A DNA stretch of 64,000 nucleotides from Patescibacteria group bacterium (GCA_018816445.1 JAHIVO010000001.1:8354-72353), one strand, 5' to 3'. Positions 23,169 to 49,728 are shown, numbered from the stretch's first letter. Numbers and translations: made by a program. The notes: generated by a model from the sequence alone, not told the origin.

Positions 23169-24719
23169 TTACTTGCTTAGAGTTACGTCGATTGCATTAA
23201 TTTTTACTAAGCTTTGATTTTTCTGTAAGTCGGGAATGTTAATAGAAAAAATTATTTTTCCTTCATAAAAGTAATCACTATCTAGATTAAAACTGGTTTG
23301 TGATATATAATTATTTTCAAATTCTTGAGGCGGATTATAACTTGATAAAAGATATTCATAATTTGAAATAGCATCAATTTCTATAGTATTAAGTTTTTTC
23401 ATCCCCAATGGGGTTGGATTAAAAAATGAGTTTTCAGAAAAAGAAAAATATCCAGTGATGGCATCATTATTTTGGACTAACAAATGATTTTTTTCAAGCA
23501 CTATCTTATTTAAAGTATCACCGGAAAGATTAACAATTTTTGGGGCTTCTTCAAGTCTGGTAGAATCTAAAATTAAAATATGGTCATCATTAATTGAAAT
23601 TGTTTGATTTGAAGCGGGGATATGCCAAGCTGGAATTTTTATGGACAAAGCATTAGTATAAATTGAATGTTGATTAATTGATTCGGAAATATCGTCGCGT
23701 ATCATAACCGAATTTGCAATTACCAAGAGAGGTTGGTTAAGGATAATTTTTGTGAGAGAATCAGCTGAACCAGTTTTAATTTTATATAAACCACTTGGCA
23801 TGTTTTGAATGCTGATAATATCAGATTGTTTTGGCCCTAATTCATTATTAGCACTTATATTGCCGTCATCAGTAATTACTTGATTGCTAATAGCTTTATC
23901 GGTTGAACTTGTAATTGTAGTTTCTAAGGGATCCGCACCTTCATAATAATTAAAATCAACTTTTATTACTTCTAACTGTAGATCACCAGGTGAAGTAAGA
24001 TATGTGTAGGCGTTAAATGTCCCTTCTATGTATGGCGTAAAAGTTCTATCCTGTGTGAATGTTTTGCCCATAAGTGATTGAGCAACCATTTCTGACTGAT
24101 CTAGATTTGAATAATAATCCGCAATAGCATAATTGATTATAGGTTCTGAATTATTATCAGGTGATATTATATTATATACTTCCCTTGGTGGATTGGATAA
24201 AAAATCTTCAATAGAATTATATTTTTTGTTTTTTTGCCATAATGAAAGATCATCAGAAATGATATTTTCCCATGATAATTCGTTTAAATTAGGATTGAAT
24301 ATTGGTTTATATGAAATTGTATTATCAATATTTTTAATTCCGAGTAGAATATTGTTTGACCCATGGATGCTATAGTCAAGTTTAATATCTACCTTATTGA
24401 TTATATCTTCCTTTACGCCTGAAGGTAGTTGAATTTCAAATTCAGTTAAATCATTATTGATGATTTGGTTATCTATGCGATATTGTTGGCTGCCGTTTTG
24501 ACTAATGTATGACACATCTGATATTGGGGAAATAGGGGATATTAGTTGACTATTATCTGGATATGAATATAAAAAATGGACTTGATCCGAAAAAAATAAA
24601 AAATTTTTATTAAAAAGGCCAATAAATAGGATGATAGTAAAAATAATAATTACTTCTAAAATAATTCTTTTTAAAGTTGAAATTTTATCATTTTTTATAT
24701 AAAAGTTTGAAAAATTCAT
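23169..24719 (-). CDS. N-terminally anchored exported protein of unknown function; paralog of 48187..49728
   Basis: Single N-terminal TM (IILEVIIIFTIILFIGLF) and a large extracytoplasmic domain. Shared blocks with 48187..49728 include 'WENIISDDLSLWQKNKKYNSIEDFLSNPP' ~ 'WTWITKDDLILFQKSDKLYESIDYFLDNLP' and 'GYFSFSENSFFNP' ~ 'GFFFFSSENSFDP'. Confidence 0.5.
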   Translation of the reverse strand: MNFSNFYIKNDKISTLKRIILEVIIIFTIILFIGLFNKNFLFFSDQVHFLYSYPDNSQLISPISPISDVSYISQNGSQQYRIDNQIINNDLTEFEIQLPSGVKEDIINKVDIKLDYSIHGSNNILLGIKNIDNTISYKPIFNPNLNELSWENIISDDLSLWQKNKKYNSIEDFLSNPPREVYNIISPDNNSEPIINYAIADYYSNLDQSEMVAQSLMGKTFTQDRTFTPYIEGTFNAYTYLTSPGDLQLEVIKVDFNYYEGADPLETTITSSTDKAISNQVITDDGNISANNELGPKQSDIISIQNMPSGLYKIKTGSADSLTKIILNQPLLVIANSVMIRDDISESINQHSIYTNALSIKIPAWHIPASNQTISINDDHILILDSTRLEEAPKIVNLSGDTLNKIVLEKNHLLVQNNDAITGYFSFSENSFFNPTPLGMKKLNTIEIDAISNYEYLLSSYNPPQEFENNYISQTSFNLDSDYFYEGKIIFSINIPDLQKNQSLVKINAIDVTLSK

Positions 24720-24787
24720 AACTTGAAAATTAGGCTAAATTTTGTTATATTTATACTATATAAATATTGTAATGTTAATTTAAATAA

Positions 24788-25210
24788 ATGTCAAAAACAA
24801 ACGATAATAATAACAGTATAGCACGATCCAATCAATATCTTAGAGAGCTGGTAATTTCTATACTTGTAATTTTCCTCATTGTTTATATAATACTATTGAT
24901 TATTGAATTTAGTTTCAAAGGTTTTGTTAGTAATACAATTAATCCAAATTACCTACTATTAATAATAATTCCATTGGGAGTAATTTCGTCATTGCTATCA
25001 AGAAATCCATCTATAACTATAAATAGAAGAGCTACTACGGCAGTTAATTATTTATTGATATTTCTTCTATTAATTATCAATTTTTTTATTCTATATAACC
25101 AAAGGTCAAATTTTAGTAATAATTACCTAGTACTGTCAGTATTTACTGGTTTAATAATTTTTTTATTAGGTATATTCATCCTCATCCAAGATAATAAAAG
25201 TGAGAAATAA
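24788..25210 (+). CDS. Small hypothetical membrane protein
   Basis: Three to four hydrophobic helices with no motif. Confidence 0.35.
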   Translation: MSKTNDNNNSIARSNQYLRELVISILVIFLIVYIILLIIEFSFKGFVSNTINPNYLLLIIIPLGVISSLLSRNPSITINRRATTAVNYLLIFLLLIINFFILYNQRSNFSNNYLVLSVFTGLIIFLLGIFILIQDNKSEK

Positions 25211-25212
25211 TT

Positions 25213-25899
25213 ATGGATATATTCATTGTCATACCTGCATATAATGAAGAAAAGGTAATTAGGGGTGTACTCATTGATTTAAGAAATAATTTTAAGAATA
25301 TAATAATTATTGATGATGCCTCAGATGATAAGACTGTTCAGATTGCAGAACAGTTCGATATATTGGTTTTACGGCATCTAATAAATAGGGGGCAAGGTGC
25401 GGCTCTGAAAACAGGAATTATGTATGCCCTTAATCAAAAAGCTGATGTTATAGTTACTTTTGATGCTGATGGTCAGCATCATGCTGAAGATGTAAAAAAT
25501 TTAGTAAAGCCGATTATTGATGGTCAAGTGGAGGTAGTGTTAGGATCCCGTTTTTTGAATAATGATCAGTCGAGTAATATTCCTGTTTATAGAAAGATAA
25601 TTCTAAAACTTGCAGTAATTTTTACTAAGTTCTCATCAAAATTAAATATTACTGATACGCATAATGGGTTAAGGGCATTATCTTTCAAGGCAGCATCAAA
25701 AATTGAACTAAAGCAGGATAGAATGGCGCATGGCTCAGAGATATTAGACGAGATATATAAAAATAAATTATCATATATTGAGGTGCCAGTTAATATTACT
25801 TATACCAATTATTCAATGACAAAGGGAGGCGCCAATCAAAATCCTTCAGCTTTTATGAAAATATTATTTAAATATTTATTAGGGAGATTTATTAAATGA
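25213..25899 (+). CDS. GT2 polyprenyl-phosphate glycosyltransferase (DPM1/GtrB-like, soluble form)
   Basis: 'IVIPAYNEEKVI', 'IIIIDDASDDKT' and 'VTFDADGQH'. Confidence 0.75.
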   Translation: MDIFIVIPAYNEEKVIRGVLIDLRNNFKNIIIIDDASDDKTVQIAEQFDILVLRHLINRGQGAALKTGIMYALNQKADVIVTFDADGQHHAEDVKNLVKPIIDGQVEVVLGSRFLNNDQSSNIPVYRKIILKLAVIFTKFSSKLNITDTHNGLRALSFKAASKIELKQDRMAHGSEILDEIYKNKLSYIEVPVNITYTNYSMTKGGANQNPSAFMKILFKYLLGRFIK

Positions 25900-26276
25900 T
25901 AATAAAAATATTAGTTTCAATATTTGTTTTATTCGCCGTTTCCAGGGTTTATTTAAGATATCGTGATGGGTCAGTACGAGTTATTGCTTTTATTGTTTGG
26001 TTATTGTTGTGGGGTGGTATTGCTTTTTTTGTTTGGTGGCCAAAGTTCAGTGATATTATTGCTAGCGGGGTTGGTATTGGCCGGGGTATTGACGCCTTAG
26101 TGTATATTTCAATAGTAGCCTTGTTCTATGCCATGTTTCGCGTTTATATAAAATTGGAATTTATAGAACATGAAATAACAAGTTTGGTGCGCAACCTGGC
26201 CTTATCAGATAAATTGAATAAGATAAAAGATAAACGCGACAATGAAAATGAAAAAAAGGATATTAGTAGCAACTGA
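25896..26276 (+). CDS. Small membrane protein (DUF2304/GtrA-like partner of the upstream GT2)
   Basis: 126 aa, 3-4 TM, translationally coupled to the GT2, a common GT2-plus-small-membrane-protein pair. Confidence 0.4.
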   Translation: MIIKILVSIFVLFAVSRVYLRYRDGSVRVIAFIVWLLLWGGIAFFVWWPKFSDIIASGVGIGRGIDALVYISIVALFYAMFRVYIKLEFIEHEITSLVRNLALSDKLNKIKDKRDNENEKKDISSN

Positions 26277-27390
26277 GTTTTTCCCGAGGACAAAGGAAGG
26301 AGATGCTAGGGGAGGTGTAGAAATTCGAAGCTGGCAAGTAGCAAAGCGTCTGGCTAAACAATACGAGATTATTGTAATAACATCGCTTGAGGATAGCTTA
26401 CCCAAGGAAGATATTTTTTTTGATATTAGGGTTTTACGTGTGGGGCCCAGAAGAAGATACACCCAAAAAGGTGCGTTGGTAAAAAGGATTTTGTTCATGA
26501 TTGGAGTATATAGGAAGATTATAAAGTTAAAACCCCAGCTTGTAGATGCGCAGAGTATTATTACATATCTGCCTTCATTTTATGCTGCCAAAAAATTAAA
26601 TATTAAGTCAGTCATGACCTGCCATGATGTTTGGCAAGGCAGGTGGATGAAATTATTTGGTTTTATGGGAATAATTGGAGAAATATTTGAACGATTTTAT
26701 TTAAAATTGCCATGGAATAAGTTTATTGCTAATAGCCAATATACTAAAAATAGCTTAATAAAATCCGGAATAGATAATAATAAAATCGAGGTAGTCCATA
26801 ATGGTATTGATTTTCAATTAATAAATTCAATTAATGTTGAACAAAAAAACGATTTTTCAGTATGTTCAGTAACACGACTCGTAGATTATAAAAGAGTAAT
26901 TGATTTATTGCATGCCGTGGCACTGGTTAAGAATAAATTTCCAGACGTAAAATGCAATATAATTGGCAGTGGACCGGAATTAAATAATCTTAAAAATGCA
27001 GTAAAAAAATTAAAAATTGAATTAAATGTTAATTTTTTAGGTTTTGTGGATGAGTACAGGGAAGTAATTAGCGAAATAAAAAAGTCTAATGTATTTTGCT
27101 TAACTTCCACTGTAGAGGGGTTTGGTATAGTTATAGCTGAAGCGATGGCCTGCGGCACGCCGGTTGTGGCCACTGATATTAGTCCAATAAGAGAGGTTAC
27201 AAAAAATGGTCAGGGAGCAATATTATTTAAACCCAAGGATGTACAAGCCTTATCAAAAGCCATAATTAAAATATTTGGTGATAGACAAATCGCTAATGAT
27301 CTATCTAAAAAAGGAAAAGAAATTTCCTTAAACTATAATTGGAACAATCTTGCCGAGCTTACCTTGAAAATTTATCATGATTTAATATGA
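26242..27390 (+). CDS. GT4 glycosyltransferase
   Basis: 'EGFGIVIAEAMACGTPVVATD'. Confidence 0.75.
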   Translation: MKMKKRILVATEFFPRTKEGDARGGVEIRSWQVAKRLAKQYEIIVITSLEDSLPKEDIFFDIRVLRVGPRRRYTQKGALVKRILFMIGVYRKIIKLKPQLVDAQSIITYLPSFYAAKKLNIKSVMTCHDVWQGRWMKLFGFMGIIGEIFERFYLKLPWNKFIANSQYTKNSLIKSGIDNNKIEVVHNGIDFQLINSINVEQKNDFSVCSVTRLVDYKRVIDLLHAVALVKNKFPDVKCNIIGSGPELNNLKNAVKKLKIELNVNFLGFVDEYREVISEIKKSNVFCLTSTVEGFGIVIAEAMACGTPVVATDISPIREVTKNGQGAILFKPKDVQALSKAIIKIFGDRQIANDLSKKGKEISLNYNWNNLAELTLKIYHDLI

Positions 27391-28409
27391 GAATTGCCTT
27401 ATTAACTCCAACCTTTTCTAAATTCAGCGGTATTGATAGAGTTGTTGAGAATCAATTCCGAAAATTAACTCAGGAGGGAAATGAAGTGGTTGTAATGACT
27501 CTCGAGGCAGATATTAATGATGAAGATATTAAAGTTATAACAATTAAAAGTCTCCGAGGGCAGTTCTTACATAGACTATATCGTTTAATATTTTTTTTGG
27601 ATTTTCGTAAAATTAAAAAATCTGCAGAGCAACTTAAAGATTTTAACGTAATTTATAGCCACCAGTATCCTATGAATTTAATTGCCATGAGAGCTAAGAA
27701 AAAATATGGGATCAAATTTATTTATTATAATCACGGTATAGCATCGTTAAAAACGTTTACTAGCCTTATTGACAAGTTATATATTCAACTAATAAAGTCG
27801 CTATCCAATTGGACAGTAAAAAAATCAGATAAGGTAATTTCAATCAGTAAATATTTAAGAGACGTATTAAAAAGAGAAATAGGTATTGAGAGTGAGGTAG
27901 TTTATAATCTTGTTGATAAGGAGCGCTTTAATAGCAGTATAAGCGGATTAGTTGTAAAGAAAAAATATTCTTTAGAAAGTACGCCGGTTGTGCTGTATGT
28001 TGGTAGAATTTCACCTCACAAAGGAATTCATTTATTAATTAAATCTTTTAATATAGTTCTAGATAAAATTCCAAATGCAAAATTACTAATTGTCGGAAAA
28101 AAAACTTTTAATAATTATGCAAGAAAATTAGAAACATTGGCTGAAAAATCCGTAATATTTGCAGGCTATGTAAAGGATGATGAATTGCCTTTTTATTATG
28201 CTGCTTGCGATGTTTATGCTACAGCCAGTCTTTGGGAAGGATTTGATTTACCAATTGCTGAAGCACAGGCCTGCGGTAAGCCTGTTGTAGCTTATAATCT
28301 ATGTTCACACCCAGAGATAATTAATAAAAACGGTACACTTGTAAAGCCCAAAGATATCAATTCTTTTGCCAAGGCTATTATTAATACAATTAATAAAAAT
28401 GAAAAATAA
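27387..28409 (+). CDS. GT4 glycosyltransferase
   Basis: 'EGFDLPIAEAQACGKPVVAY'. Confidence 0.75.
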   Translation: MRIALLTPTFSKFSGIDRVVENQFRKLTQEGNEVVVMTLEADINDEDIKVITIKSLRGQFLHRLYRLIFFLDFRKIKKSAEQLKDFNVIYSHQYPMNLIAMRAKKKYGIKFIYYNHGIASLKTFTSLIDKLYIQLIKSLSNWTVKKSDKVISISKYLRDVLKREIGIESEVVYNLVDKERFNSSISGLVVKKKYSLESTPVVLYVGRISPHKGIHLLIKSFNIVLDKIPNAKLLIVGKKTFNNYARKLETLAEKSVIFAGYVKDDELPFYYAACDVYATASLWEGFDLPIAEAQACGKPVVAYNLCSHPEIINKNGTLVKPKDINSFAKAIINTINKNEK

Positions 28410-29496: not shown

Positions 29497-29687
29497 ATTT
29501 TTTTACTATAGTTTATTTACCAGTAATTTTAATAAAATTTTTATTATCCTTGGTTATTCCAGATTTTCTCCAAACCTTTATACCATTTGCATCTTTATTG
29601 ATTGGTATTGTCATTAGTAGTGTAATAATTCTATTTGTATTATTCGCTATTGTACAGATTGGTAAACAGAATAATAAGGATATTTAA
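29493..29687 (+). CDS. Small hydrophobic ORF (two TM); coding status uncertain
   Basis: 64 aa, start overlaps the upstream stop, fully hydrophobic. Confidence 0.25.
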   Translation: MNFFTIVYLPVILIKFLLSLVIPDFLQTFIPFASLLIGIVISSVIILFVLFAIVQIGKQNNKDI

Positions 29688-31242
29688 TGCTTGGATTTTC
29701 GCGGTAATCTTTTGGATCAAGCAGGTCGCTTTCGTAAATTTTTTCAATAATGTTTTGGTTTTCAAATCTGCTGAAATCAGCTTCATCAAAATATTCTCTA
29801 GTACGTGCAGAAATGATTATATAATCGTATTTAGTTGTTGATAAATAGGCAGTGAATTCGTCATTAGTTCCAAAAAACAATTGTTGAACTGGCTCCCATT
29901 CAATAAACTTATTTCTAGTTAAATTTGTGTGTTCGTAGTTATAAGCTGGTTTCATATCTGCAATGGTGGTTAATAAGTACATGGTAGATGGATCAGAGAG
30001 GACAATTTTATTTGAGAATTTATCTTTAATTTTCAATTGCTCGTTTACGTTTTCCCTGGATAAACCATATTTAATAGGTGTAATATTGTTCGCCAGTAAT
30101 AAAGTAATAACTGGGTAGAGAGAGGAAAGTACCAAAATAATTAATACAATTATATTAGACAAATAGTTATTCCTTGATATTAAACGAATTATTTTATAGA
30201 ATCCATAGGCGCCGATAATGCCTAAGGCTGGAATTAATAAGCTAATTGCCCTGCTGGCAAAAAAGTTATAATTTATTGAAGTTTGATAAGCTAGTAATAA
30301 AGAACAGATCAGCCATGGAAAAATTACTAAAAATTTTATTTGCGTACCGCACGCTTTCCTGAGATTAAAAAGAAATATTAATAATCCGGCAATTACAAAT
30401 ATTAAAAAGAATGAATGAGTAATACTTAATAGAGGAGCTAGAAAATTTAATGGAATATTATTTTGAGAGTCAGTAAAAACCTTGAAAGAAGGATCGGATG
30501 TATCGATTGGAAACGCTTGGTTGATGAAGGATGGTAAATTTAATAAAATAAATAATAAAATTGCGATTGTAATACATATTATTATAAATAATGATTTCGA
30601 CCGTTTTTTATGAATAATAAAAAATGGAATAGCAATGGCACAAATTATTGTCGCTGCGTAAATGGCATTAATATGATGAAATAATATTAAGGAGAGCGTT
30701 AATAACGAAAAAATGATATAGTCTTTCAGGGCGTGACTATTGTTCCGAAAAATTTTAACTAGTAAAAATATCAATACCAAAAAGAGGGTTAGGACTATGT
30801 TTCTTGGCAAATAGTAATAAAAAATCTCCTGATTAAACAAAAAAATCGCAAAGATCGCTATTATACTTATAACTTTGTTATTTAAGAGAATATTTGATAA
30901 TATATAGATTGATAAAATTAATAAGATTATGAGAATTATATTCAGTATAGACATTGAAATAGGGAGTTCTAAGTCTGTGATTTGAGAAAAATAACTGCTC
31001 AATACATGAAAAAGGGGAGTGAAGCTATATAAACTTGTAGTTTCGCTAGTCGGCATATCTCCCGGAATGCTGCCAGAATTAGATATTTGATTGGCGAACC
31101 AGGTATGGAATAATAAGTCGCCTCCCTCCTGGTAAGGAAATAAAAATAGTATATAACTGTAGATTGTGATTATTAAAATAATCAAGGTAATTAAAATAGC
31201 GGTAGGAAGGTGTTTATTCTTAATAATTGATTGTATAGGCAT
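29647..31242 (-). CDS. Large polytopic membrane protein (GT-C/Wzy-like)
   Basis: 531 aa with more than 12 TM helices and a C-terminal soluble domain. Confidence 0.45.
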   Translation of the reverse strand: MPIQSIIKNKHLPTAILITLIILIITIYSYILFLFPYQEGGDLLFHTWFANQISNSGSIPGDMPTSETTSLYSFTPLFHVLSSYFSQITDLELPISMSILNIILIILLILSIYILSNILLNNKVISIIAIFAIFLFNQEIFYYYLPRNIVLTLFLVLIFLLVKIFRNNSHALKDYIIFSLLTLSLILFHHINAIYAATIICAIAIPFFIIHKKRSKSLFIIICITIAILLFILLNLPSFINQAFPIDTSDPSFKVFTDSQNNIPLNFLAPLLSITHSFFLIFVIAGLLIFLFNLRKACGTQIKFLVIFPWLICSLLLAYQTSINYNFFASRAISLLIPALGIIGAYGFYKIIRLISRNNYLSNIIVLIILVLSSLYPVITLLLANNITPIKYGLSRENVNEQLKIKDKFSNKIVLSDPSTMYLLTTIADMKPAYNYEHTNLTRNKFIEWEPVQQLFFGTNDEFTAYLSTTKYDYIIISARTREYFDEADFSRFENQNIIEKIYESDLLDPKDYRENPSIKYPYYSVYQSVQ

Positions 31243-31247
31243 TAGAT

Positions 31248-32414: not shown

Positions 32415-32499
32415 CTGTATTAATTACTTATTATTTGGATTAATAAGATCATTTATAATTATTAGTTAGTTTTTTAATAATTTTTTAATTTTTTTATCC

Positions 32500-35939: not shown

Positions 35940-35944
35940 CTTGT

Positions 35945-38027: not shown

Positions 38028-38125
38028 AGAAATGGTTTAAATATTTAGATTCAATATTTGTTGTATTATAACACATTTATGCTAGTAATCAATACCATTT
38101 TAATTGTAGCTTTTTAAATTATTTT

Positions 38126-39397: not shown

Positions 39398-40595
39398 TAT
39401 TTGTGAGATTACGGTAAATATAAATAGTTTTATTTATAATTTTATCCCAAGTTAATGTTTGAGCAGTCAAATAACCTGCTTGACCCATTTTCTCGCGTTG
39501 CTGCTTGTCGTTTATCAAAAGCGTTAGTTTTTCAAGTAATTGATTTTGGTTATCAGGATCAATTATATATCCCTGTTGGTCATTTGTAATATATTCAGCA
39601 ATACCTGTACTAGCTGTGCAAATAAATGGTTTTTTTAAAGACATTGCTTCCAGGCAAACCATGGAAAAACTTTCAACCACACTTGGTTGAATTAATACAT
39701 GGCAGCAGGCCATAAAATTAATTAACTGCTTTGGCGGTAATTCATTAATAATATATACATTATTGTGTAGTTGTTTGCTCTGAATCAATTCTTGGTAATA
39801 TTTTTTTTTAGGACCTTTGCCGATTATTAATGTAATAAAATTGTTAATCTTATTTTGAATTAGCTGATGATTTGCTTGAATAACCATTTCGATTCTTTTT
39901 TCAGGGACAAATGACCCGATGGTCATAAGTACGATTTTATTTTTCATGACATTTTGCCAATAAGGAGTAATTGATTTCGGGGATGGAATATTTATGCCAT
40001 TTGGTATGATGTGAATTTGCTTATTTACGATTTTTTGATAAGTATTTGCCGCATTTTTTGAAACACATATTAATACGTTCATATTTTTAAGATTATCAAC
40101 GGCTTGCTTAAGAACGCCTTTACCGAATGTGGCAAGATGTTGAGGATAAAGGCCATGAATGGTAATAAGCGATGGAATTTTTAATATATTACCGATTAGT
40201 GAAGCTTCATCGCCAATATAAATCTCATGTCCGTGTACCAGGATAAACCGTTTTTTATTATGTAATTTTTTTGCTTGCTTAATTATTTTATATCTAACAT
40301 AGCGCTTATTAATTAAACTCGCCTGTTTATTTCTAATTATCCGCAACCATTGAAGCAATGAAAGCCAAAATGGGTGGTACTTAATGTAATAAATTTCAAG
40401 GCCATTATCATTTATTATAGATTTTTGTTTATTTGATAATATAAATCTTAGTGATACGGAATAAGGTGTAATTACGGTGATATTAAAGTATTGCTTTAAT
40501 GCATGAAGCTGATCAACTATAAATGTTCCAATTGCAGGATTGTATGCATTGGGGAAAAGCTGGGTAATGATAAGAATATTAGGTTTTATTTTCAT
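39390..40595 (-). CDS. GT4 glycosyltransferase
   Basis: 'VESFSMVCLEAMSLKKPFICT'. Confidence 0.7.
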   Translation of the reverse strand: MKIKPNILIITQLFPNAYNPAIGTFIVDQLHALKQYFNITVITPYSVSLRFILSNKQKSIINDNGLEIYYIKYHPFWLSLLQWLRIIRNKQASLINKRYVRYKIIKQAKKLHNKKRFILVHGHEIYIGDEASLIGNILKIPSLITIHGLYPQHLATFGKGVLKQAVDNLKNMNVLICVSKNAANTYQKIVNKQIHIIPNGINIPSPKSITPYWQNVMKNKIVLMTIGSFVPEKRIEMVIQANHQLIQNKINNFITLIIGKGPKKKYYQELIQSKQLHNNVYIINELPPKQLINFMACCHVLIQPSVVESFSMVCLEAMSLKKPFICTASTGIAEYITNDQQGYIIDPDNQNQLLEKLTLLINDKQQREKMGQAGYLTAQTLTWDKIINKTIYIYRNLTNNG

Positions 40596-41947
40596 GTTGA
40601 ATTGACTAGCGACCCTTTACTTAATTGTGACATCTTTTTTAGTTCTAAACGAATTTTTATGAACAAAACAACATTAGATGTAATATATGAAATAACGGTG
40701 ACCCAAACAGCTCCCATGATGCCATATTTTGGAATAAAGATGATATTCCCTATAATATTTAGTACAAGTATTGCAGCTGTAACCATGCTCATGAATTTCA
40801 CTTTTTTTAATACCAGGAGCATATTAACTATCGGGTTTAGAATAATACTAACAACTAAACTTATCAGCAAGACATAGAGTACGGGCATAGATTCAGTAAA
40901 TTTTTGTTGGAAGATTAATATAGTTAATGGTTTAATAAAAAAAAATGTGGGTAAAATTATAATTGTTATCAAAAAACTAAATTTTTGTATTTTTTTAGTA
41001 GCACCAATAAATTCTTGAGGTTTTTGGAAACTCGAAATTTTTGGCAATAGTACAGTATTAATTGCAGTAAGTATTATTAAGAAAGTCGCATATATTGTGT
41101 TTGCAAAAGAGTAGTAGGCTACTTGATCAAGACTAACCATGGAAGTTAACATAAAAATATCTGTTTTTTGAAAGAGAAGCGAAGCTATTGCCATGACGAT
41201 CAACCATTTACTGTAGTGGAACATTTCTTTTAATAATCCACGCGGGAGAATACTACCCGTTTTGACGATAACCCGATATTTTAAAAAATAGAACAGTCCT
41301 ATAAAAATAAAAATTAAATTTGATGCAATTCCGATATATATTACATTAACTGCCGTCAACATTTTCAATACAGTAAATAGTATAATAACAAGAGTAGTGA
41401 GAGTCGCCTGTGAGAACGTTAGTACAGAGAAGAGAGTGAATTTTTGTTGAGATTGAAAAAGAGTTTTAAAAAACGAAAAGACAATACTAAACAGGATATT
41501 AATGCCAGCTAACTTGATAAATAATGCTAATTCAGGTTTGTGGAATATTGAATTAGCGATTGTTGGAGCAAATATGAATAAAATTATTAATGAAACAACT
41601 CCAAGCAGGAATTCTAATATAAATATTTTTTTTATAAGAAGACCCGCTACATTAGTATCTTTTTTTAAATAAAGACTAAGATATCTAACAAAACTGATAT
41701 TTATTCCAGATAATGCAATACCTGCAACTATAGCACCGATATTGTTGTATGCTACTAGAGAACCTATAGCATTAACTTCTAAAACTTTAAGCGTTACCAA
41801 ACTACCGATAAAAGTAATACCAGTAGCCAAAATACTGGAAGAGAAAACTTTTCCAGTATCTTTAACAACTTTTGAGGATAGAGTACCCTTAATATCTGAG
41901 AAGTTGAAGAAGGTAAGTAGTAACTTGAGATAATTCATCTGGTACAA
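40592..41947 (-). CDS. Wzx-type flippase (MOP superfamily), the second copy in the locus
   Basis: 451 aa with 12-14 TM helices and polysaccharide-biosynthesis-protein architecture. Confidence 0.65.
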   Translation of the reverse strand: MYQMNYLKLLLTFFNFSDIKGTLSSKVVKDTGKVFSSSILATGITFIGSLVTLKVLEVNAIGSLVAYNNIGAIVAGIALSGINISFVRYLSLYLKKDTNVAGLLIKKIFILEFLLGVVSLIILFIFAPTIANSIFHKPELALFIKLAGINILFSIVFSFFKTLFQSQQKFTLFSVLTFSQATLTTLVIILFTVLKMLTAVNVIYIGIASNLIFIFIGLFYFLKYRVIVKTGSILPRGLLKEMFHYSKWLIVMAIASLLFQKTDIFMLTSMVSLDQVAYYSFANTIYATFLIILTAINTVLLPKISSFQKPQEFIGATKKIQKFSFLITIIILPTFFFIKPLTILIFQQKFTESMPVLYVLLISLVVSIILNPIVNMLLVLKKVKFMSMVTAAILVLNIIGNIIFIPKYGIMGAVWVTVISYITSNVVLFIKIRLELKKMSQLSKGSLVNST

Positions 41948-41963
41948 ATGTTAAATTGTGCTT

Positions 41964-43627: not shown

Positions 43628-43735
43628 TGTTATCCATATTATTTATTTATTCTAAATTTAGGTTCAAAATTGCTTAATTTATCAAAAAAGGTTGGTCATA
43701 TTATACCAACCTTGTTTCTTATTCGCAAGTAAGTA

Positions 43736-44956
43736 TTATTGGAGTTTATCGCTAAAAAGATGGTTAAATAATCTATTATCAAATTTAGTAAATTTCACTT
43801 GCCTCCTGCTCATTACTTTTTTGGCGGTATCCATAGCTTTATCAAGTTTATATTTAATTGGTCCTTTCTGGGCGTCAAACCAAGCAAAAGAGGGGATACA
43901 TTTTGGTAAGTAGCCGGCACCGAAAACATTAGCAGAAAATCCAACTACTGTGCCCGTATTAAACATAGTATTTATGCCGGTTTTTGAATGGTCACCCATA
44001 AAAAGACCGACAAATGTTAAGCGAGTGTTAATTTTATTATTTCCCATTATTACTGTCACAGGCCCATAATTATTTTTTAGATCACTGTTGTTGGTATCAG
44101 CGCCAAGATTGCACCAGCTGCCTATGTAAGAATGCCCCAGAAATCCTTCATGCTGCTTATTGGAAAATTCATGTATTATCGATTCTTCAATTTCTCCGCC
44201 GATTTTTGAAGCCTGGCCAATTGTCGTACCAGGATATATTTTCGCACCGCTTTTTATCAGACATTTTTTGCCAATAAATACAGGTCCTGTAATAGTACAT
44301 AGCGGAAGTATTTCTGTGCCTCTTTCTATGACAACTGGCCCTTTTTCTGCATCAATGACAGCACCTGATTTTATCTTTGAATTTTTTTCAATAAAAATCC
44401 TTTTTTTATTAATCAGAGTTACTTGGGGATAGATTTTACCGTTGATTTTCCCAAGTTCATAGTTATTTTCAGCATCATTGATGACTTCAGTTTCATTATT
44501 TTCAACTAAATCCCAGATGTATTCAGCTAAGGTTACTTTTACGTTTTTTCTCTTTGCTTTAATATCTTTAAAATCCAGCCAGTCTTTTTTTAAATTGATT
44601 TTTTTTAAATTTTCTTTAGTAATATAAGCTGCAATTATCTCTCCCTTAAAAGTAAAAATTACGTCATCTTTTAATGGCCAAAGCTTATTGGCTAGTTTCT
44701 TGTCTGCGATTATGCGGCCATTAATAAAGAGGCACGAATTCATTTTTTTTGCGGACAGAATATTTGTGTTTTTCCGGAGTTTTAGTAATGGCTGGATGTA
44801 TAGCCGGCAATGGTAGTAAACTGCAGATCCCGGCATGCATTTTTTAATTTTTTCAGCCAAACTGAAAATTCCGCAGCGTAGCTGGTAAACAGGCCGGGAT
44901 AATGACAGGGGATGAAAGTTTTTTACTTTTTCATCTTCAAATATGCAAATATTCAT
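43736..44956 (-). CDS. GlmU-like putative sugar nucleotidyltransferase/acyltransferase (NTP_transf_4-like N-domain plus LbH domain)
   Basis: N-terminal 'MNICIFEDEKVKNFHPLSLSRPVYQLRCGIFSL' resembles the 'alternative bacterial GlmU' family; C-terminal hexapeptide repeats. Confidence 0.5.
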   Translation of the reverse strand: MNICIFEDEKVKNFHPLSLSRPVYQLRCGIFSLAEKIKKCMPGSAVYYHCRLYIQPLLKLRKNTNILSAKKMNSCLFINGRIIADKKLANKLWPLKDDVIFTFKGEIIAAYITKENLKKINLKKDWLDFKDIKAKRKNVKVTLAEYIWDLVENNETEVINDAENNYELGKINGKIYPQVTLINKKRIFIEKNSKIKSGAVIDAEKGPVVIERGTEILPLCTITGPVFIGKKCLIKSGAKIYPGTTIGQASKIGGEIEESIIHEFSNKQHEGFLGHSYIGSWCNLGADTNNSDLKNNYGPVTVIMGNNKINTRLTFVGLFMGDHSKTGINTMFNTGTVVGFSANVFGAGYLPKCIPSFAWFDAQKGPIKYKLDKAMDTAKKVMSRRQVKFTKFDNRLFNHLFSDKLQ

Positions 44957-44957
44957 G

Positions 44958-46010
44958 CTACTTTATTATTGGTAATTCTACCTGTTGTTTTGTCTTGGCT
45001 GATTCGTAAATGGCCTCAATAATTTCTACTGACTTGCGCGCTTCACGTCCGTCCATGGCTACATCTTTGTAATTACTAAAATGATCAATAATACTTCGGT
45101 AAACAAAGATATGCCTTGGCGAGGATCCCTGAAATAATCCTAATTCATATACCTGAGGCGGAATATTATTTTGTATTTGAGGTTCAGGATAGTCTTCAAC
45201 TTCCCAAGTTTCAAATTTATCAATAGCTTTGCCGCCGATTTTTATCGTACCTTTACTGCCCATGACAGTCAGGGAACATTCCAGGTTTTTTGGATACGTA
45301 TTTATTGAAAATTCAAGAGTAGCATAAGCTCCATTGGTGAATTGGAGTATGGCATAAGCTTCATCTTCGGTTTCTGTATTGTGGGCAACAGTATCAATTT
45401 TAGCAAAAACATTTTTAACTGGCCCAAAAAACCATTGCAGAATATCAACGTAATGATCGCCTTGGTTTAATAGTGCTCCGCCATCAAGCTTTTTTGTGCC
45501 GCGCCAATTAACTTCATCAAAATACGCTTGCGGTCTGGTCCAGCGGATTGTTAATGCTCCGGAATATAATTTACCAAATTTCCCTTCTTCTATGGCTTTC
45601 TTGGCAATAATTACTGCTGGGTTGTATCTGACTTGTTTAACTACAAAAAGTTTTTTCTGATTTTTTTCAAAAGCTTTGATAATTTCATCAATTTCTGTTG
45701 TATTCAAAGCTAGAGGTTTTTCTATCAACGCATGCTTGCCTGCATTAGCTGCGGCAATTCCCATTTCAGCGTGCAGTCCGTTGGGCGTGCAGATTGACAC
45801 TATATCAATATCATCTTGTGTTAGCATTTTATTATAATCCGTATACCATTTTGTTTTATATTTTTCTCCATACTCCTTTGCTTTTAACTCTGTTTTATCA
45901 CAAAGGGCGGCGAGATTTAATTCATCTTTATAGAGTTGTATAGAACCAAAATGCTGACTAGAGATTCTGGAACAACCAATAATTCCAAAATTAATTTTTT
46001 TATTCTTCAT
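44958..46010 (-). CDS. Gfo/Idh/MocA-family NAD-dependent sugar oxidoreductase (WbpB/GnnA-like 3-dehydrogenase)
   Basis: 'INFGIIGCSRIS' Rossmann motif, 'IVSICTPNGLHAEM' and 'EKPLA'. Confidence 0.75.
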   Translation of the reverse strand: MKNKKINFGIIGCSRISSQHFGSIQLYKDELNLAALCDKTELKAKEYGEKYKTKWYTDYNKMLTQDDIDIVSICTPNGLHAEMGIAAANAGKHALIEKPLALNTTEIDEIIKAFEKNQKKLFVVKQVRYNPAVIIAKKAIEEGKFGKLYSGALTIRWTRPQAYFDEVNWRGTKKLDGGALLNQGDHYVDILQWFFGPVKNVFAKIDTVAHNTETEDEAYAILQFTNGAYATLEFSINTYPKNLECSLTVMGSKGTIKIGGKAIDKFETWEVEDYPEPQIQNNIPPQVYELGLFQGSSPRHIFVYRSIIDHFSNYKDVAMDGREARKSVEIIEAIYESAKTKQQVELPIIK

Positions 46011-46455
46011 ATATCGTTTTTTTAGAGATCCCCTTTTTATTTTTAAAGATTAGCAATATTATTCCAATTAAGCAAATAACAAAAATTTCAATGATTACAT
46101 CAAGTGTATTGATAAGTAAACCGATTTTATTTAATATAAAGACCAATAATGGTACGATGGCAATTGAGAAAACGATTGACAAAGTAGTCCGTTCAAGATT
46201 ATCTATTTTATCTTTAGACCAAATAACCCAAGTCCAAATGAAACCCGGAATAAAAATTACAAATACAGCCCCAAACACAAGTCTAAATGATTCATTAAGG
46301 GGAAGTGATATTCCCAGAATAAGCGAAACAACGACTAAAACCAGAACAAAGGCTAATATATAAGTCATCCAATTTTTTTTCATAAAGATAATGATATAAT
46401 ACCAGGAATATTTTATTTTGAGAAGACCATTTTTTAATGATATAATTAAGTACAT
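46000..46455 (-). CDS. Small membrane protein (likely true start MKKNWMTY… at 46383)
   Basis: Three TM helices; overlaps the upstream gene by 11 nt unless the internal start is used. Confidence 0.4.
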   Translation of the reverse strand: MYLIISLKNGLLKIKYSWYYIIIFMKKNWMTYILAFVLVLVVVSLILGISLPLNESFRLVFGAVFVIFIPGFIWTWVIWSKDKIDNLERTTLSIVFSIAIVPLLVFILNKIGLLINTLDVIIEIFVICLIGIILLIFKNKKGISKKTIYEE

Positions 46456-46457
46456 CT

Positions 46458-48122
46458 ATGATTAAGTCAATATTTGTCAGTAAAAATATCTATTTGCTAA
46501 TTTTAATTGGTCTGGGGATAATTTTTTTTGTGGTATATGCTTGGCAATATTATGGATTAGATACATTATTCACTTCTCCTGACGAAACGGCAAATTATTT
46601 TTTTATAGAATTATTTGCCAACCAAGGTCAATTAAGCTATGAGGAGCCATTAAATGTTGATGTTAATAATGTAATCAAGCCCAGAAGCATGGGTGTCAAT
46701 GGTGATAATGTTGTGCCCGGGAGCTTTTTAGGGATTATCTTGTTATATGGCTTGATAGCAAAAATTTTTGGTTTGAAAATCGTATTATATTTAACTCCAT
46801 TATTTTCCGTTATATCTGTAATATTTTTTTATTTATTAATCAAGGAAGTTTTCAATAAAAAAGTTGCTTTTGTATCTTCAGTATTTTTATTTTTTTTACC
46901 ACCATTTTGGTATTACAGCGCACGAGGGATGTTTCATAATGCCTTATTTATTTCTTTATTAATTATTGGTTGTTATTTTATTGTTAAATCGATTAAAAAT
47001 TCAAATGCTACAGTTAAAGCTATAAGTAATTATTTTTTAGCTGGTTTATTTGTCGGTCTGGCGTTAATCACACGTACTTCCGAAACCATTTGGATTTTTG
47101 TAGTAACTATTTTACTTTTTTCATTTTTTAGAAAAAACATCAAATGGTATTTTCCTGTTATCTTTTTTGTAGTTATTATGCTAGTTTTTTCTCCAATTCT
47201 TTTTTTAAATAATCAATTATATGGTTCGCCATTTTCATTTTCCTATTCATCCCAGACCATTGATTCCTCGTCTTTACAAACATTTACTCAATCGAGCCTA
47301 GAAAAATTTAAACAATTAATCTGGCCATTTAATTTTGATTTTAATTACGCTAGTCAATCTTTTTATAATTATATTTTATTAATATTTCCATGGTTTTCAA
47401 TATTTTTTGTTATTGGTTTTATTCGACTTTGGAAAAATGTCATTAATAGTATATTTTTTAAAATGCGAGGCCTCAAATATCAGGCATCGATATCAGAAGC
47501 ACAAAAAAAATACGGGATTCTATTCACCGTTATATTGATCTGGCTATTTTTATATTATGGATCATATTTTTTTATAGAATATTTGGATCCTACAAGAATT
47601 ATTTTAGGGTCTTCATACTTACGTTATTGGTTACCTATATTCGTATTTGGTTTGCCGTTTGTGACAATAGGTATTTCTAAAGTAACATTTTTATTCAGGC
47701 AGCCATTAATAAAAAAAATAATTATTAGTACATGTTTTTTATTTTTTTGTTCCTTTTCTGTGATAACTGTTTTATCTGATCCGCTTCAAGGATTATACGC
47801 ACTTAAAACCAATATTTCTCAAGATATCCAAAAAAATAGGCTAATAATTGCTCAAACTGAATCCAACTCGATTATTATAAGCGGTTATAATGATAAAGTT
47901 TTTTTCCCAAGCAGAAAAGTAATTGTAGGTTGGCCAGCGGAAGATACATTATTTGATAAATCCATGAAAGTAATGATCAGGGAGCATCCTGTATACTTTT
48001 TTTACAATCCCTTAGATGAAAACAGTTTACGTACTAAAAATTTAATTCACAAATTTAACTATAATATTGAAGAAGTTACTAATAATAATAGAACCGAAGA
48101 AGTATTATATAAAATTCAATAA
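46458..48122 (+). CDS. GT-C-like polytopic membrane glycosyltransferase (PMT/ArnT-like); paralog of 12601..14469
   Basis: 554 aa with multiple TM helices and a C-terminal soluble domain; shared blocks with 12601..14469. Confidence 0.5.
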   Translation: MIKSIFVSKNIYLLILIGLGIIFFVVYAWQYYGLDTLFTSPDETANYFFIELFANQGQLSYEEPLNVDVNNVIKPRSMGVNGDNVVPGSFLGIILLYGLIAKIFGLKIVLYLTPLFSVISVIFFYLLIKEVFNKKVAFVSSVFLFFLPPFWYYSARGMFHNALFISLLIIGCYFIVKSIKNSNATVKAISNYFLAGLFVGLALITRTSETIWIFVVTILLFSFFRKNIKWYFPVIFFVVIMLVFSPILFLNNQLYGSPFSFSYSSQTIDSSSLQTFTQSSLEKFKQLIWPFNFDFNYASQSFYNYILLIFPWFSIFFVIGFIRLWKNVINSIFFKMRGLKYQASISEAQKKYGILFTVILIWLFLYYGSYFFIEYLDPTRIILGSSYLRYWLPIFVFGLPFVTIGISKVTFLFRQPLIKKIIISTCFLFFCSFSVITVLSDPLQGLYALKTNISQDIQKNRLIIAQTESNSIIISGYNDKVFFPSRKVIVGWPAEDTLFDKSMKVMIREHPVYFFYNPLDENSLRTKNLIHKFNYNIEEVTNNNRTEEVLYKIQ

Positions 48123-48186
48123 TATATTGATTTATTTATAAAAGTATTATACATTTATTGATACAGATTAAAATCAGCTTATTGTA

Positions 48187-49728
48187 ATGATTAATATAAA
48201 AAGAAGTAAAATTCAATTAGTAATCAAGATTATAATATGGTTAATTCCAATAATTATTTTAATTTGGGTGGCCAATAAGCAATTTGTACCAGGAGGAAAA
48301 TTGGAAGTAACATATAATGTTCCGGAAGAATCAAAGTTCATTAAAAATTTCGCCTCAAAGGAACCAAATCAATATATCGGTACAAAAAATGAACTAGGAA
48401 ATAATGACTATACCCATTTAATAACTGTTTCTCCGGTTTATTTTGATGTCTACGTACCGCGGGCTTTTCCAAAAGCCACTATTACTTTAAGGTATGATAA
48501 TAAAGACGAGCAACCGCTTATCCAATTAGGTTCAAAAGTATCCAACGACGCTTATTACTATGAAGATATGGCCATGTATAATAAAGAAATTGAAAAAATA
48601 TTAAATAATGAATATGAAGCCTGGACCTGGATAACTAAAGACGATCTAATCCTTTTCCAAAAAAGTGATAAGCTTTATGAGTCAATTGATTATTTTTTGG
48701 ATAATTTGCCAGATCCTGACAAAATACTGCAATATAATTATAAATTAGCAAATAATATTGAGTTGCCTGGATATTTCCCGGCTTCACAAAAATCAGTAAT
48801 TAGAAAAAGTATACGTGGCCAGCATGAATTATTTACATACATTACGCGTGATGAACCTCTGAATTTTACATTTATAACCCAGGATATTAATAGAAATAAT
48901 GGTGTTGATGAAATTGAAATTACTATCTTTGATAATTCGGATAAATTGATTGACGAAATTATCTTGCCAGACGATGGAGAGATAATGGCATCGGGAAAAG
49001 TGATGCCGGAGAGAAATGTTGGAATATTTTTAAATGACATACCGGCGGGTGTTTATCGTATAAATTTAGATACTACAGATGATGTATTTATTAAAGAAAT
49101 TCAAACACAGCAACATTTGATTATGTTTAAAGATAATATTTATCTAACTGACAATGAAGAGTATAAAGACATCTTAGGAGATAAAACACATCAGTCAACA
49201 CAGTTATTTACAAATGCTAAAGAGGTTGATTTTAAAACCGCCCATGATGATGGCTGGCAAACTATTATTATTAATGGATTCCCGATACAAATAAATGAGA
49301 GCCATAAATATTTTAATATTAATGGACTTGATGGTATATCTGAAATTTCTATTCCAAAAAATGATTTATTAGTTGAAGGAGATGGGTTCTTCTTTTTCTC
49401 ATCAGAAAATTCTTTTGATCCGTATTATAATCTTACCACTAGTTTAATTGAAGTTGAGGATATAAATGAATATAATTATATAATTGCTAGGTATATACCT
49501 GCAAAAAAGAGTGGTAATTATTCAAAAGCTCAAGCAGTAGTTGAAGTTCCAAATTTATCTTATAAAACAGTCAATGACTCAACTTATTCAAGCTTTATTA
49601 TCAGTTTGCCCGGATTGTCTGAGAGTGGCAAATTATTCCACATTAAACAAATAAATATTTTGTTTGAAAAAGAACCAATAACAATTAATAATTTTTTTTC
49701 CAAGGCGAAGAATTTTATAAGTAAATAA
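48187..49728 (+). CDS. N-terminally anchored exported protein; paralog of 23169..24719
   Basis: Single TM (IKIIIWLIPIIILIWVA) and shared sequence blocks with 23169..24719 (see that entry). Confidence 0.5.
   Translation: MINIKRSKIQLVIKIIIWLIPIIILIWVANKQFVPGGKLEVTYNVPEESKFIKNFASKEPNQYIGTKNELGNNDYTHLITVSPVYFDVYVPRAFPKATITLRYDNKDEQPLIQLGSKVSNDAYYYEDMAMYNKEIEKILNNEYEAWTWITKDDLILFQKSDKLYESIDYFLDNLPDPDKILQYNYKLANNIELPGYFPASQKSVIRKSIRGQHELFTYITRDEPLNFTFITQDINRNNGVDEIEITIFDNSDKLIDEIILPDDGEIMASGKVMPERNVGIFLNDIPAGVYRINLDTTDDVFIKEIQTQQHLIMFKDNIYLTDNEEYKDILGDKTHQSTQLFTNAKEVDFKTAHDDGWQTIIINGFPIQINESHKYFNINGLDGISEISIPKNDLLVEGDGFFFFSSENSFDPYYNLTTSLIEVEDINEYNYIIARYIPAKKSGNYSKAQAVVEVPNLSYKTVNDSTYSSFIISLPGLSESGKLFHIKQINILFEKEPITINNFFSKAKNFISK

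Follow-up and report, generated by a model that had tools for sequence, protein, structure and literature searches.

Two membrane-anchored exported proteins of one family are encoded in a 64,000-nt stretch of a Patescibacteria group bacterium genome (GCA_018816445.1 JAHIVO010000001.1:8354-72353; hereafter the window, with coordinates counted from its first letter). Each belongs to a recurrent three-gene module, in which it is accompanied by a large polytopic membrane protein and by a small protein with four transmembrane (TM) segments. The polytopic partner is of the GT-C glycosyltransferase type in one module and probably a divergent GT-C in the other. We name the family of the two exported proteins FAM, its two window copies FAM_A and FAM_B, and the family of the small proteins SMALL. 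Our preferred reading, to which we give an even chance, is that FAM is an extracytoplasmic accessory subunit, probably one that positions glycan, of a multi-subunit transferase composed of GT-C, FAM, and SMALL. The genes of the two modules and those that bear directly on them are as follows.

17528..17980, plus strand: third SMALL paralog, 150 aa, four TM segments (SMALL hidden Markov model [HMM], E=1.1e-15)
21620..23155, plus strand: POLY_A, polytopic protein of 511 aa, partner of FAM_A, with a profile-profile match to GT-C
23169..24719, minus strand: FAM_A, single-pass family protein, 516 aa (FAM HMM, E=3.6e-90)
24788..25210, plus strand: SMALL_A, 140 aa, four TM segments, divergent from FAM_A (SMALL HMM, E=5.9e-38)
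25213..25899, plus strand: GT2, polyprenyl-phosphate sugar synthase, GacI/PpgS-like (Pfam Glycos_transf_2, E=2.2e-29)
25896..26276, plus strand: DUF2304 small membrane protein, GacJ/Rv3632-like (Pfam DUF2304, E=8.2e-21, 74.7 bits, cut-off 25.5)
46000..46455, minus strand: DUF1616-like small membrane protein, divergent from GTC_B (Pfam DUF1616, E=1e-10)
46458..48122, plus strand: GTC_B, polytopic GT-C of 554 aa, about 10 TM segments, PMT_2/ArnT-like, first gene of the type-B module
48187..49728, plus strand: FAM_B, single-pass family protein, 513 aa
49730..50164, plus strand: SMALL_B, 144 aa, four TM segments, third gene of the type-B module

Both FAM open reading frames (ORFs) reported by a first-pass annotation of the window are present. 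FAM_A is identical to the NCBI hypothetical protein KKC06_00155, and FAM_B to KKC06_00265 (Patescibacteria group bacterium). BLASTP between the two gave one collinear alignment (residues 37-516 of FAM_A and 30-495 of FAM_B, 91 bits, E=7e-24, 25% identity). When the ectodomains were compared without their TM helices, the Smith-Waterman score was 333 against 300 shuffles (mean 50.8, standard deviation 7.9, maximum 83; z=35.6), and the similarity is therefore owed neither to composition nor to the TM segment. Pairwise alignment thus bears out the shared blocks that had been claimed beyond the TM helices, and the two peptide blocks that had been quoted lie inside it, on the family-wide conserved W146, L156, and Q158 and on G400, F404, and F410. 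Sequence comparison confirms FAM_A and FAM_B as full-length paralogs. What had been described as a duplicated pair is hence real as a paralogy, but the true duplicated unit is the three-gene module, which includes the small four-TM protein, sometimes fused to FAM.

Gene order in type B was surveyed over the window, three homolog loci, and 12 loci of GTDB genomes retrieved through FAM, this FAM-based retrieval having used a narrow alignment (A3) biased towards type B. The three homolog loci share a common order, namely a polytopic protein of ~555 aa, FAM, a protein of 136-144 aa, and S-adenosylhomocysteine (AdoHcy) hydrolase. Across all type-B loci surveyed, the order GT-C (PMT_2), FAM, SMALL was invariant, and a divergent member (L024) shares it. 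In the reciprocal test, 52 metagenome loci were fetched through GT-C alone, 47 of them with downstream sequence; FAM was immediately downstream in 40/47 and elsewhere in the locus in 2/47. At those of these loci where the SMALL HMM gave no match, an ORF with 2-4 TM segments and an E..PG(F/L/M)V motif still followed FAM. The accessory association with a polytopic GT-C-like protein that had been proposed, to be checked by co-occurrence in related genomes, is hence backed by strong synteny in both search directions, FAM-based and GT-C-based, from which an accessory role may be read. In type A, POLY_A and FAM_A converge, and SMALL_A, GT2, and DUF2304 follow in that order, with GT4 genes also running divergently from FAM_A. 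The same order is conserved in four further loci (L006, L020, L021, and L022), where FAM_A orthologs and SMALL_A keep their equivalent positions.

The spacing within the modules is tight. FAM_B begins 64 nt behind GTC_B and ends 1 nt ahead of SMALL_B, with a terminator-like site in neither gap. The stop codons of the convergent POLY_A and FAM_A genes are 13 nt apart (23155..23169), where no terminator-like hairpin was found, and SMALL_A ends 2 nt ahead of the GT2 gene. The divergent starts of FAM_A and SMALL_A are 68 nt apart (24719..24788). Promoter and terminator scans were overall at chance level in this AT-rich window (~28-37% GC), and it is as weak positional hints that we take its two 11-of-12 promoter-like matches; the best site (46418-46446, 11 of 12, extended TG) lies just upstream of GTC_B, and the FAM_A/SMALL_A gap carries good matches in both directions (24794-24766 on the minus strand and 24723-24751 on the plus strand).

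Mean identities were then compared within and between the two types for each component.

Polytopic protein: 48% within type A, 34% within type B, 17% between types
FAM: 37% within type A, 37% within type B, 21% between types
SMALL: 31% within type A, 25% within type B, 22% between types

The same two-way split is seen in each of the three components, which makes the two three-gene modules of the window ancient paralogs. At the sequence level, this co-divergence fits duplication of the whole module followed by co-divergence of cognate partners. In the window, a dedicated GT2 is missing from the type-B module. The FAM family was seen mostly in Patescibacteria, or the candidate phyla radiation (CPR), and since the loci retrieved through GT-C span 29-69% GC, the module may reach beyond typical low-GC CPR genomes. 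The module was also noted on high-GC metagenome contigs (L041, L047, L054, and L068; 62-69% GC) and on three contigs labelled as non-CPR, with Pirellulales or Gammaproteobacteria in the titles of their GTDB records (L010, L012, and L017). The latter three, with 36-48% GC and CPR-like gene content, are probably mis-binned.

We next consider the polytopic partners. GTC_B matched Pfam PMT_2 (E=8.5e-9, 36.3 bits, cut-off 26.1) and STT3 (E=2.2e-6, 27.9 bits, cut-off 24.5), and 8 of its 13 orthologs matched PMT_2 as well (best E=2.8e-15). Invariant in its family are S40-P41-D42 after the first TM segment, P75-R76, and R389-Y390, with E43 nearly so, and G476, D479, K480, F483, and P484 are conserved towards the C-terminus. 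With a curated profile threshold exceeded, a polytopic topology, and an acidic motif in the first outer loop, GTC_B qualifies by sequence as a GT-C. Its sequence contains no WWD, and hence no WWDxG motif of the oligosaccharyltransferases STT3, PglB, and AglB. The PMT_2/ArnT type with SPD and without WWDxG makes a sugar donor of the polyprenyl-monophosphate kind more likely than a reaction of the oligosaccharyltransferase kind.

POLY_A, by comparison, had no Pfam match even at E≤10 and no meaningful one in NCBIfam, and pairwise BLAST comparisons of the three polytopic proteins reached no significance. Profile-profile alignment of the POLY_A and GTC_B families by hhalign gave a probability of 82% (E=1e-5, 353 columns), with superposition of NTD36 on SPD42 (the first-loop Asp), DPRS on KPRS, and YWRF on YLRY; the control alignment of SMALL against GT-C gave 0.3%. 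On the profile-profile match alone, POLY_A is a probable divergent GT-C. PDB sequence profiles gave no significant match to the GT-C (A5), POLY_A (A4), or SMALL (A7) alignments. Both FAM copies therefore do keep the polytopic company that had been described, GTC_B as a GT-C above the PMT_2 and STT3 cut-offs and POLY_A convergent with FAM_A, but the two partners are only remote homologs of each other. The label "Wzy-like" given to them did not hold, the partners being of PMT_2/ArnT type.

The DUF1616-like gene that diverges from GTC_B keeps this divergent upstream position at 8 other type-B loci, and additional metagenome loci have it too. Its product matches only positions 2-110 of the 307 of the archaeal DUF1616 model. 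The ORF start lies 2 nt from the GTC_B start codon on the opposite strand, homologs align from residue 25, and the promoter-like match at 46418-46446 falls within the first 24 codons; the true start is probably near codon 25, ~72 nt further in. The idea that this protein might be a homolog of the fused SMALL::FAM architecture described below was dropped, as hhalign of SMALL against it gave a probability of 1.8%.

SMALL proteins have 132-150 aa and about four TM segments. SMALL_A and SMALL_B both score near E=1e-38 with the SMALL HMM, and the SMALL proteins of the window match each other's orthologs at E=5e-5 to 9e-14, the matches of SMALL_A to type-B SMALL proteins lying between 5e-5 and 7e-8. 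Pfam gave no consistent family across 20 members at E≤1, only scattered spurious membrane families, one member having a weak EmrE match (0.013), and NCBIfam likewise yielded nothing meaningful. In size, topology, and position (~110-150 aa, four TM segments, beside GT2 and GT-C genes), SMALL corresponds to flippases like GtrA and those of the small multidrug resistance (SMR) family. The third SMALL paralog of the window, which was not used in building the HMM, has a shuffle z of ~9-10 against the other two. It has no adjacent FAM gene and is divergent from a Wzx/MurJ-type flippase (15995..17458), which hints at a role for SMALL in lipid-linked-glycan translocation that does not depend on FAM.

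Beside copy A, the genomic company was as first described, but a GacI/GacJ-like donor-synthesis pair had been missed. The GT2 and DUF2304 genes are adjacent, like those of the GacI/GacJ (PpgS/Rv3632) pair, and overlap by 4 nt. The GT2 is closest to the polyprenyl-phospho-HexNAc synthase PpgS, but scored 202 bits (E=6.4e-60) against the NCBIfam PpgS model, below the equivalog cut-off of 370, and is therefore described only as GacI/PpgS-like. In Streptococcus pyogenes, GacJ, which is a DUF2304 protein, binds to the GT2 GacI and raises its activity, the product of GacI is GlcNAc-P-undecaprenol, and the GT-C GacL moves GlcNAc to polyrhamnose; the Mycobacterium tuberculosis pair PpgS/Rv3632 behaves like GacI/GacJ (bioRxiv 10.1101/180810).

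FAM itself is a large family without a name. An exhaustive profile search recovered 1,525 cluster representatives (clusters at 50% identity) at E≤1e-3 and 786 at E≤1e-30, and all members bearing a source name are "hypothetical protein" of a Patescibacteria bacterium. Up to E≤10, Pfam matched neither window copy, and the one NCBIfam match, blaCcrA for FAM_A, is spurious (18 bits against a cut-off of 550). Accordingly, neither database placed them, at E≤10, in any Wzz, glycoside hydrolase (GH), carbohydrate-binding module (CBM), polysaccharide lyase (PL), or carbohydrate esterase (CE) family. PDB sequence profiles against the FAM alignments (A1 and A2) gave nothing at E≤1, and searches of the literature on DUF1616 and on CPR with GT-C or glycosylation turned up no account of the family. 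The first-pass annotation, which recognized no domain and suspected a new family, is upheld on both points, since neither Pfam, NCBIfam, PDB-sequence profiles, nor Foldseek detected a known domain such as Wzz, GH, or CBM.

FAM is as well conserved as the enzyme beside it (31-45% against 25-44% identity to the window copies). Among 109 diverse members, ~37 positions are conserved in at least 80%, mostly within residues 196-310. They include Y196, R210, G211, Y218, E223, D233, N235, D241, D262, D263, G288, Y290, and D299, and further W146, Q358, Y436, and P475. Judged from the alignment, conservation of this kind is more suggestive of a site for a metal or a ligand than of a surface protein with a purely structural role.

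Variant forms of FAM were informative about its partnership. Six long members carry N-terminal extensions, so that the family profile starts 80 to ~170 residues in (in P0072, the best-scoring stretch starts at residue 319). In five long members (P0081, P0085, P0123, P0124, and P0072), hhalign identifies this extension as a homolog of SMALL (probability 98.9%, E=4e-17, 120 columns), and in L007 the fused SMALL::FAM gene overlaps the gene of the GT-C homolog. Among the 150 best family representatives, no GT-C::FAM fusion was found. At the other extreme are minimal FAM proteins of 173-213 aa, in which HMM positions 1-124 run straight into 414-494. They keep the TM helix and both halves of a base sandwich and sit between GT-C and a short SMALL of ~60 aa with two TM segments, which makes anchor plus base the conserved core of the partnership. 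Five loci (L042, L044, L049, L050, and L075) have two divergent or tandem GT-C paralogs with one minimal FAM and such a ~60-aa, two-TM SMALL; these may represent an ancestral or a stripped-down form of the module. Separately, most close type-B homologs (577-613 aa; P0003-P0024) contain a Lys/Glu-rich, probably helical insertion of ~80 aa (columns ~190-290 of alignment A1, between residues ~160 and 165 of FAM_B), which is present neither in the window copies nor in the majority of the wider family.

An AlphaFold2 (AF2) model of FAM_B (mean predicted local distance difference test [pLDDT] 89.2, predicted TM-score [pTM] 0.68) shows an N-terminal helix, an almost all-beta ectodomain whose first strand begins ~5 residues past the helix, and a short amphipathic C-terminal helix. 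The single N-terminal anchor with an extracytoplasmic domain that had been described for the pair is therefore reproduced. Together with the minimal forms, the model divides FAM_B into the following segments.

48190..48282, plus strand: N-terminal TM helix, residues 2-32 (AF2 model)
48298..48576, plus strand: base beta-sandwich, N-terminal half, residues ~38-130 (strands 38-130, present in minimal forms)
48577..49476, plus strand: inserted module, residues ~131-430 (missing from minimal forms)
49477..49668, plus strand: base beta-sandwich, C-terminal half, residues ~431-494 (retained in minimal forms)
49684..49722, plus strand: C-terminal amphipathic helix, residues 500-512 (consensus EKEPITIxNFFxKLKNW)

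Lys and Arg residues ahead of the TM helix (K5, R6, and K8 in FAM_B, and likewise in FAM_A) place the N-terminus in the cytoplasm by the positive-inside rule. The Lys-rich amphipathic helix is conserved across type-B homologs, and FAM_A ends before it. In the model and the alignments, the N- and C-terminal strands form one membrane-proximal base sandwich that is split by an insert of ~300 aa. A truncated model of residues 196-498 (pLDDT 94.0, pTM 0.83) agrees with this nested design, as its C-terminal strands lose structure once the N-terminal half is missing. The most conserved polar residues sit in the insert (R210, E223, D233, N235, D241, D262, D263, D299, and Q358). By sequence, the insert is an add-on that most FAM members have kept and strongly conserved.

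Foldseek comparison of this domain model with the PDB gave as best single-domain matches CBMs and lectins, all weak (E 1e-3 to 2e-2) and with target-normalized TM-scores (TMt) of at most 0.45. These were 7zvo, CBM BT0996-C (TMt 0.45); 6tid, the lectin BC2L-C (0.44); 2w3j, a CBM35 (0.41); 2xom, a CBM61 (0.38); and 2j1r, a fucose-binding module (0.35). The Tk-SP jelly roll was matched as well (3afg, TMt 0.14). A weak match to BcsB was also found (9fmt_F, E=0.016, query-normalized TM-score [TMq] 0.26). As modelled, then, the insert weakly resembles CBM or lectin jelly rolls. Matches of the full-length model (birnavirus VP2, Cry toxins, and GH31) were set aside as generic jelly-roll noise, with TMq ≤0.16 and a root-mean-square deviation above 20 Å; those to VP2 and PRD1 echo the nested or double jelly-roll layout and nothing beyond.

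These data can be assembled into a working model for FAM as an accessory subunit. A cytoplasmic GT2 would load a sugar onto polyprenyl phosphate, in type A a GacI/PpgS-like GT2 aided by a GacJ-like DUF2304 protein. The lipid-linked sugar would be flipped to the outer face, possibly by SMALL, which is GtrA/ArnE-like in size, topology, and operon position and not in sequence; alternatively, SMALL may be a structural membrane subunit. The acceptor at the cell surface, to which the PMT_2/ArnT-type GT-C would then transfer the sugar, is probably a wall glycan that contains rhamnose. FAM, anchored through its TM helix and the membrane-proximal split sandwich, would flank the GT-C, and its inserted jelly-roll module, with conserved Asp, Asn, Tyr, and Trp, may hold or position the acceptor glycan. 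What points to this reading is the combination of SMALL::FAM "Rosetta-stone" fusions, minimal forms, membrane-proximal geometry, a weakly CBM/lectin-like insert, and a GT2 plus DUF2304 donor context. Of the roles that the first-pass annotation had listed, glycan binding thus retains weak support from the CBM/lectin-like insert, and polymerization and chain-length control found none.

Several observations weigh on the other side. Five of the 47 GT-C homolog loci have no FAM nearby, and for one FAM locus (L023), the contig of 10.7 kb shows no GT-C. The GT-C status of POLY_A rests on the 82% hhalign probability and the motif alignment, and SMALL has no sequence similarity to GtrA or SMR flippases. 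A physical complex of GT-C, FAM, and SMALL is something we infer rather than observe directly, and synteny alone cannot tell a subunit from a substrate or a pathway enzyme. A bolder version of the subunit model, which we regard as possible though doubtful, would make FAM and SMALL obligate non-catalytic subunits of a bacterial GT-C holoenzyme, a counterpart of the eukaryotic oligosaccharyltransferase (OST) and PIG-M/PIG-X pattern. In that version, the jelly-roll insert would select the acceptor, the two modules would correspond to two acceptor or donor specificities, and the arrangement would be widespread in Patescibacteria and possibly beyond.

FAM could, in the first alternative, be the dedicated acceptor substrate, a membrane-anchored surface glycoprotein modified by an adjacent protein-glycosylating GT-C. 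Such an arrangement has a precedent in Pseudomonas, where pilin genes (pilA) adjoin tfpO or tfpW. It would suit the tight adjacency to GT-C and the predicted export and surface exposure of FAM, and the partner GT-C matches PMT_2 and STT3, which are both protein-glycosylating families. However, no N-glycosylation sequon is conserved in FAM, the best column being a sequon in 17 of the 109 members, some of which lack sequons altogether, a result that still allows O-glycosylation, and GTC_B is without the oligosaccharyltransferase WWDxG motif. Many of the ~37 highly conserved positions are Asp, Asn, Gln, Tyr, or Trp, which suggests a ligand or metal site, and both the fusion to SMALL and the reduction to anchor plus base fit a subunit better. 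We consider the substrate explanation unlikely.

The invariant acidic and polar cluster of the insert (E223, D233, N235, D241, D262, D263, D299, and Q358) also invites the interpretation that FAM is an extracytoplasmic enzyme acting on the same glycan, be it a beta-jelly-roll hydrolase, a lyase, a transglycosylase, or a wall-attachment ligase. GH and PL active sites do occur in jelly-roll folds, and a ligase of the LytR-CpsA-Psr (LCP) type was not noticed in the window. Yet neither Pfam nor NCBIfam places FAM in a GH, PL, or CE family, and the Foldseek matches are binding modules rather than catalytic domains. Moreover, the whole insert is missing from minimal forms that still hold the module position, so that a catalytic site within it would be dispensable for the core role. 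An enzymatic function is, on balance, improbable.

That the conserved core amounts to a TM helix and one beta-sandwich raises a third alternative, in which FAM would be purely a stabilizer or assembly chaperone of GT-C and bind no ligand. PIG-X/Pbn1 stabilizes PIG-M in this way, and non-catalytic OST subunits do likewise for STT3. The obligate-looking synteny and the cognate type-A and type-B pairs would be explained equally by such a role, but in the long forms no other part is conserved as well as the insert, whose invariant polar cluster points to a specific ligand or metal site in most members. We see little prospect that stabilization is all that FAM does. Finally, it is very unlikely that FAM is a chain-length regulator or co-polymerase for a Wzx/Wzy-type pathway of the same cluster, as in Wzz and other polysaccharide co-polymerases (PCP): two Wzx-type flippases (15995..17458 and 40592..41947), the polytopic proteins of the window without a firm family, which could be polymerases, and the ~80-aa charged helical insert of long-form members speak for it, but the chain-length role first suggested failed the tests of fold and topology, as FAM has one TM helix rather than two, a beta-rich rather than a helical ectodomain, no Wzz Pfam match, a PMT_2/ArnT-type GT-C and not Wzy as fixed partner, and, in FAM_A and FAM_B, no helical insert.

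Returning to the proposed accessory subunit, we compared the modules with known systems. Closest are the three-component systems of extracytoplasmic glycosylation, namely GacI/GacJ/GacL in S. pyogenes, PpgS/Rv3632/Rv3779 in M. tuberculosis, GtrA/GtrB/GtrC, CsbB/GtcA/YfhO, and ArnC/ArnEF/ArnT. Points of likeness with this group are the GT2 synthase and DUF2304 helper at 25213..26276, the small four-TM protein directly upstream of GT2, which is placed as gtrA is, a polytopic PMT_2/ArnT-type GT-C as the presumed outer-face transferase, and the surrounding rhamnose and amino-sugar biosynthesis genes. Unlike the window modules, none of these three-component systems has a dedicated single-pass beta-rich partner such as FAM. 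Further differences are that SMALL has no sequence match to GtrA or to SMR/ArnE, that FAM and SMALL are fused in some genomes, and that type B, as found in the window, comes without a dedicated GT2.

Other systems pair a polytopic transferase with a beta-rich protein. BcsB is a single-TM-anchored, mostly beta periplasmic protein of jelly-roll carbohydrate-binding domains that guides the glycan, and bcsB is encoded immediately downstream of the polytopic glycosyltransferase BcsA. FAM resembles it in being an anchored beta partner encoded behind a polytopic glycosyltransferase, and in the weak Foldseek match noted above. In contrast, the partner of BcsB is a GT2 synthase and that of FAM a GT-C, and BcsB has a C-terminal anchor and flavodoxin-like domains, whereas the FAM anchor is N-terminal. 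The Pfam BcsB profile had no match in FAM, and no sequence similarity was seen. The mycobacterial EmbA/B/C and AftD proteins carry C-terminal beta-sandwich glycan-binding modules beside the GT-C active site on the outer face. In FAM, the insert is similar at low score to folds of the CBM35, CBM61, and CBM47 types, a likeness for which no sequence homology was seen, and FAM differs in being a separate polypeptide with its own TM anchor. Eukaryotic GT-C enzymes (PIG-M with PIG-X/Pbn1, and STT3 with ribophorin I/Ost1) need single-pass luminal beta-rich partners and small multi-TM subunits. Here the likeness is one of concept, a catalytic GT-C with dedicated single-pass partners; no homology was detected, and a FAM complex would be the counterpart. 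With Wzz/PCP proteins, FAM shares that it is a membrane-anchored exported protein from a surface-glycan cluster and differs in the topology, fold, domain content, and partner already described.

The logic of GT2, flippase, and GT-C is already well known, and bacterial GT-Cs (ArnT, PglB, GacL, YfhO, and Pmt) are generally regarded as stand-alone enzymes supplied by a GT2 and a flippase. What appears undescribed is a constant single-pass nested-sandwich protein plus a small TM protein beside a large PMT_2-type GT-C lineage, as do the two cognate module types. This lineage is almost always encoded with two further uncharacterized membrane proteins, and with neither Pfam nor NCBIfam offering a model for FAM or SMALL, current annotation lists both as hypothetical. 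That the FAM/GT-C/SMALL partnership is real, widespread, and unannotated is well supported by the comparative genomics; its function we infer. If FAM and SMALL are true subunits, they would shape the envelope decoration of ultrasmall CPR bacteria, the interface of their episymbiotic lifestyle, and would offer a tractable bacterial model for GT-C accessory subunits; two new family definitions for annotation would be justified. If FAM is merely a neighboring glycan-binding protein, this would be a useful annotation, but an ordinary one.

Both modules lie in a surface-glycan biosynthesis cluster that makes up most of the ~6.9-55 kb region of the window. In this region are GT4 and GT2 transferases, DegT aminotransferases, acetyltransferases, a UDP-GlcNAc 2-epimerase, rml genes for dTDP-rhamnose, methyltransferases, and AdoHcy hydrolase. 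Scans of the window for tRNAs and Rfam elements found neither. The features placed individually are as follows.

10893, 11862, and 34965: methyltransferases
12601..14469, minus strand: large polytopic protein, 622 aa, no Pfam match
14475..15980, 18345..19586, 19624..20439, and 20429..21193, all minus strand: group of four genes that together encode a CysN-like, a CysD-like, and two Phosphodiest proteins
15995..17458, minus strand: Wzx-type flippase
29647..31242, minus strand: large polytopic protein, 531 aa, weak DUF6541 match (E=1e-3)
40592..41947: Wzx-type flippase
50183..51439, plus strand: AdoHcy hydrolase, directly 3' of the type-B module
51462..51902, plus strand: FdtA/WxcM-like cupin, 146 aa, after AdoHcy hydrolase
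52060..55345, plus strand: dTDP-rhamnose genes RmlB, D, C, and A, after the cupin
55392..56684, minus strand: PEGA-domain and beta-propeller protein, 430 aa, one TM segment, on the opposite strand past the rml genes

The AdoHcy hydrolase and the cupin stand behind the type-B module both here and at the majority of homolog loci, and the presence in a glycan operon of this enzyme, which recycles S-adenosylmethionine, suggests methylated sugars. Immediately upstream of the type-A module are genes for sulfate activation, encoding a CysN-like GTPase and a CysD-like PAPS_reduct protein, accompanied by two "Phosphodiest" proteins of the AlkP superfamily (501 and 254 aa); the gene order is repeated in L021:1..5479. 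No adenosine 5'-phosphosulfate (APS) kinase was noticed beside them. These genes raise the possibility that the surface glycan could be sulfated or phospho-modified. By hhalign, the 531-aa polytopic protein matched short segments of the GT-C and POLY_A families with 75-90% probability, and both it and the 622-aa polytopic protein are candidates for additional GT-C or Wzy-type enzymes of the cluster. Proteins of ~440 aa occupy the position of the PEGA/beta-propeller protein in five other loci (L003, L011, L014, L017, and L018), and this protein may be a further conserved component of the envelope.

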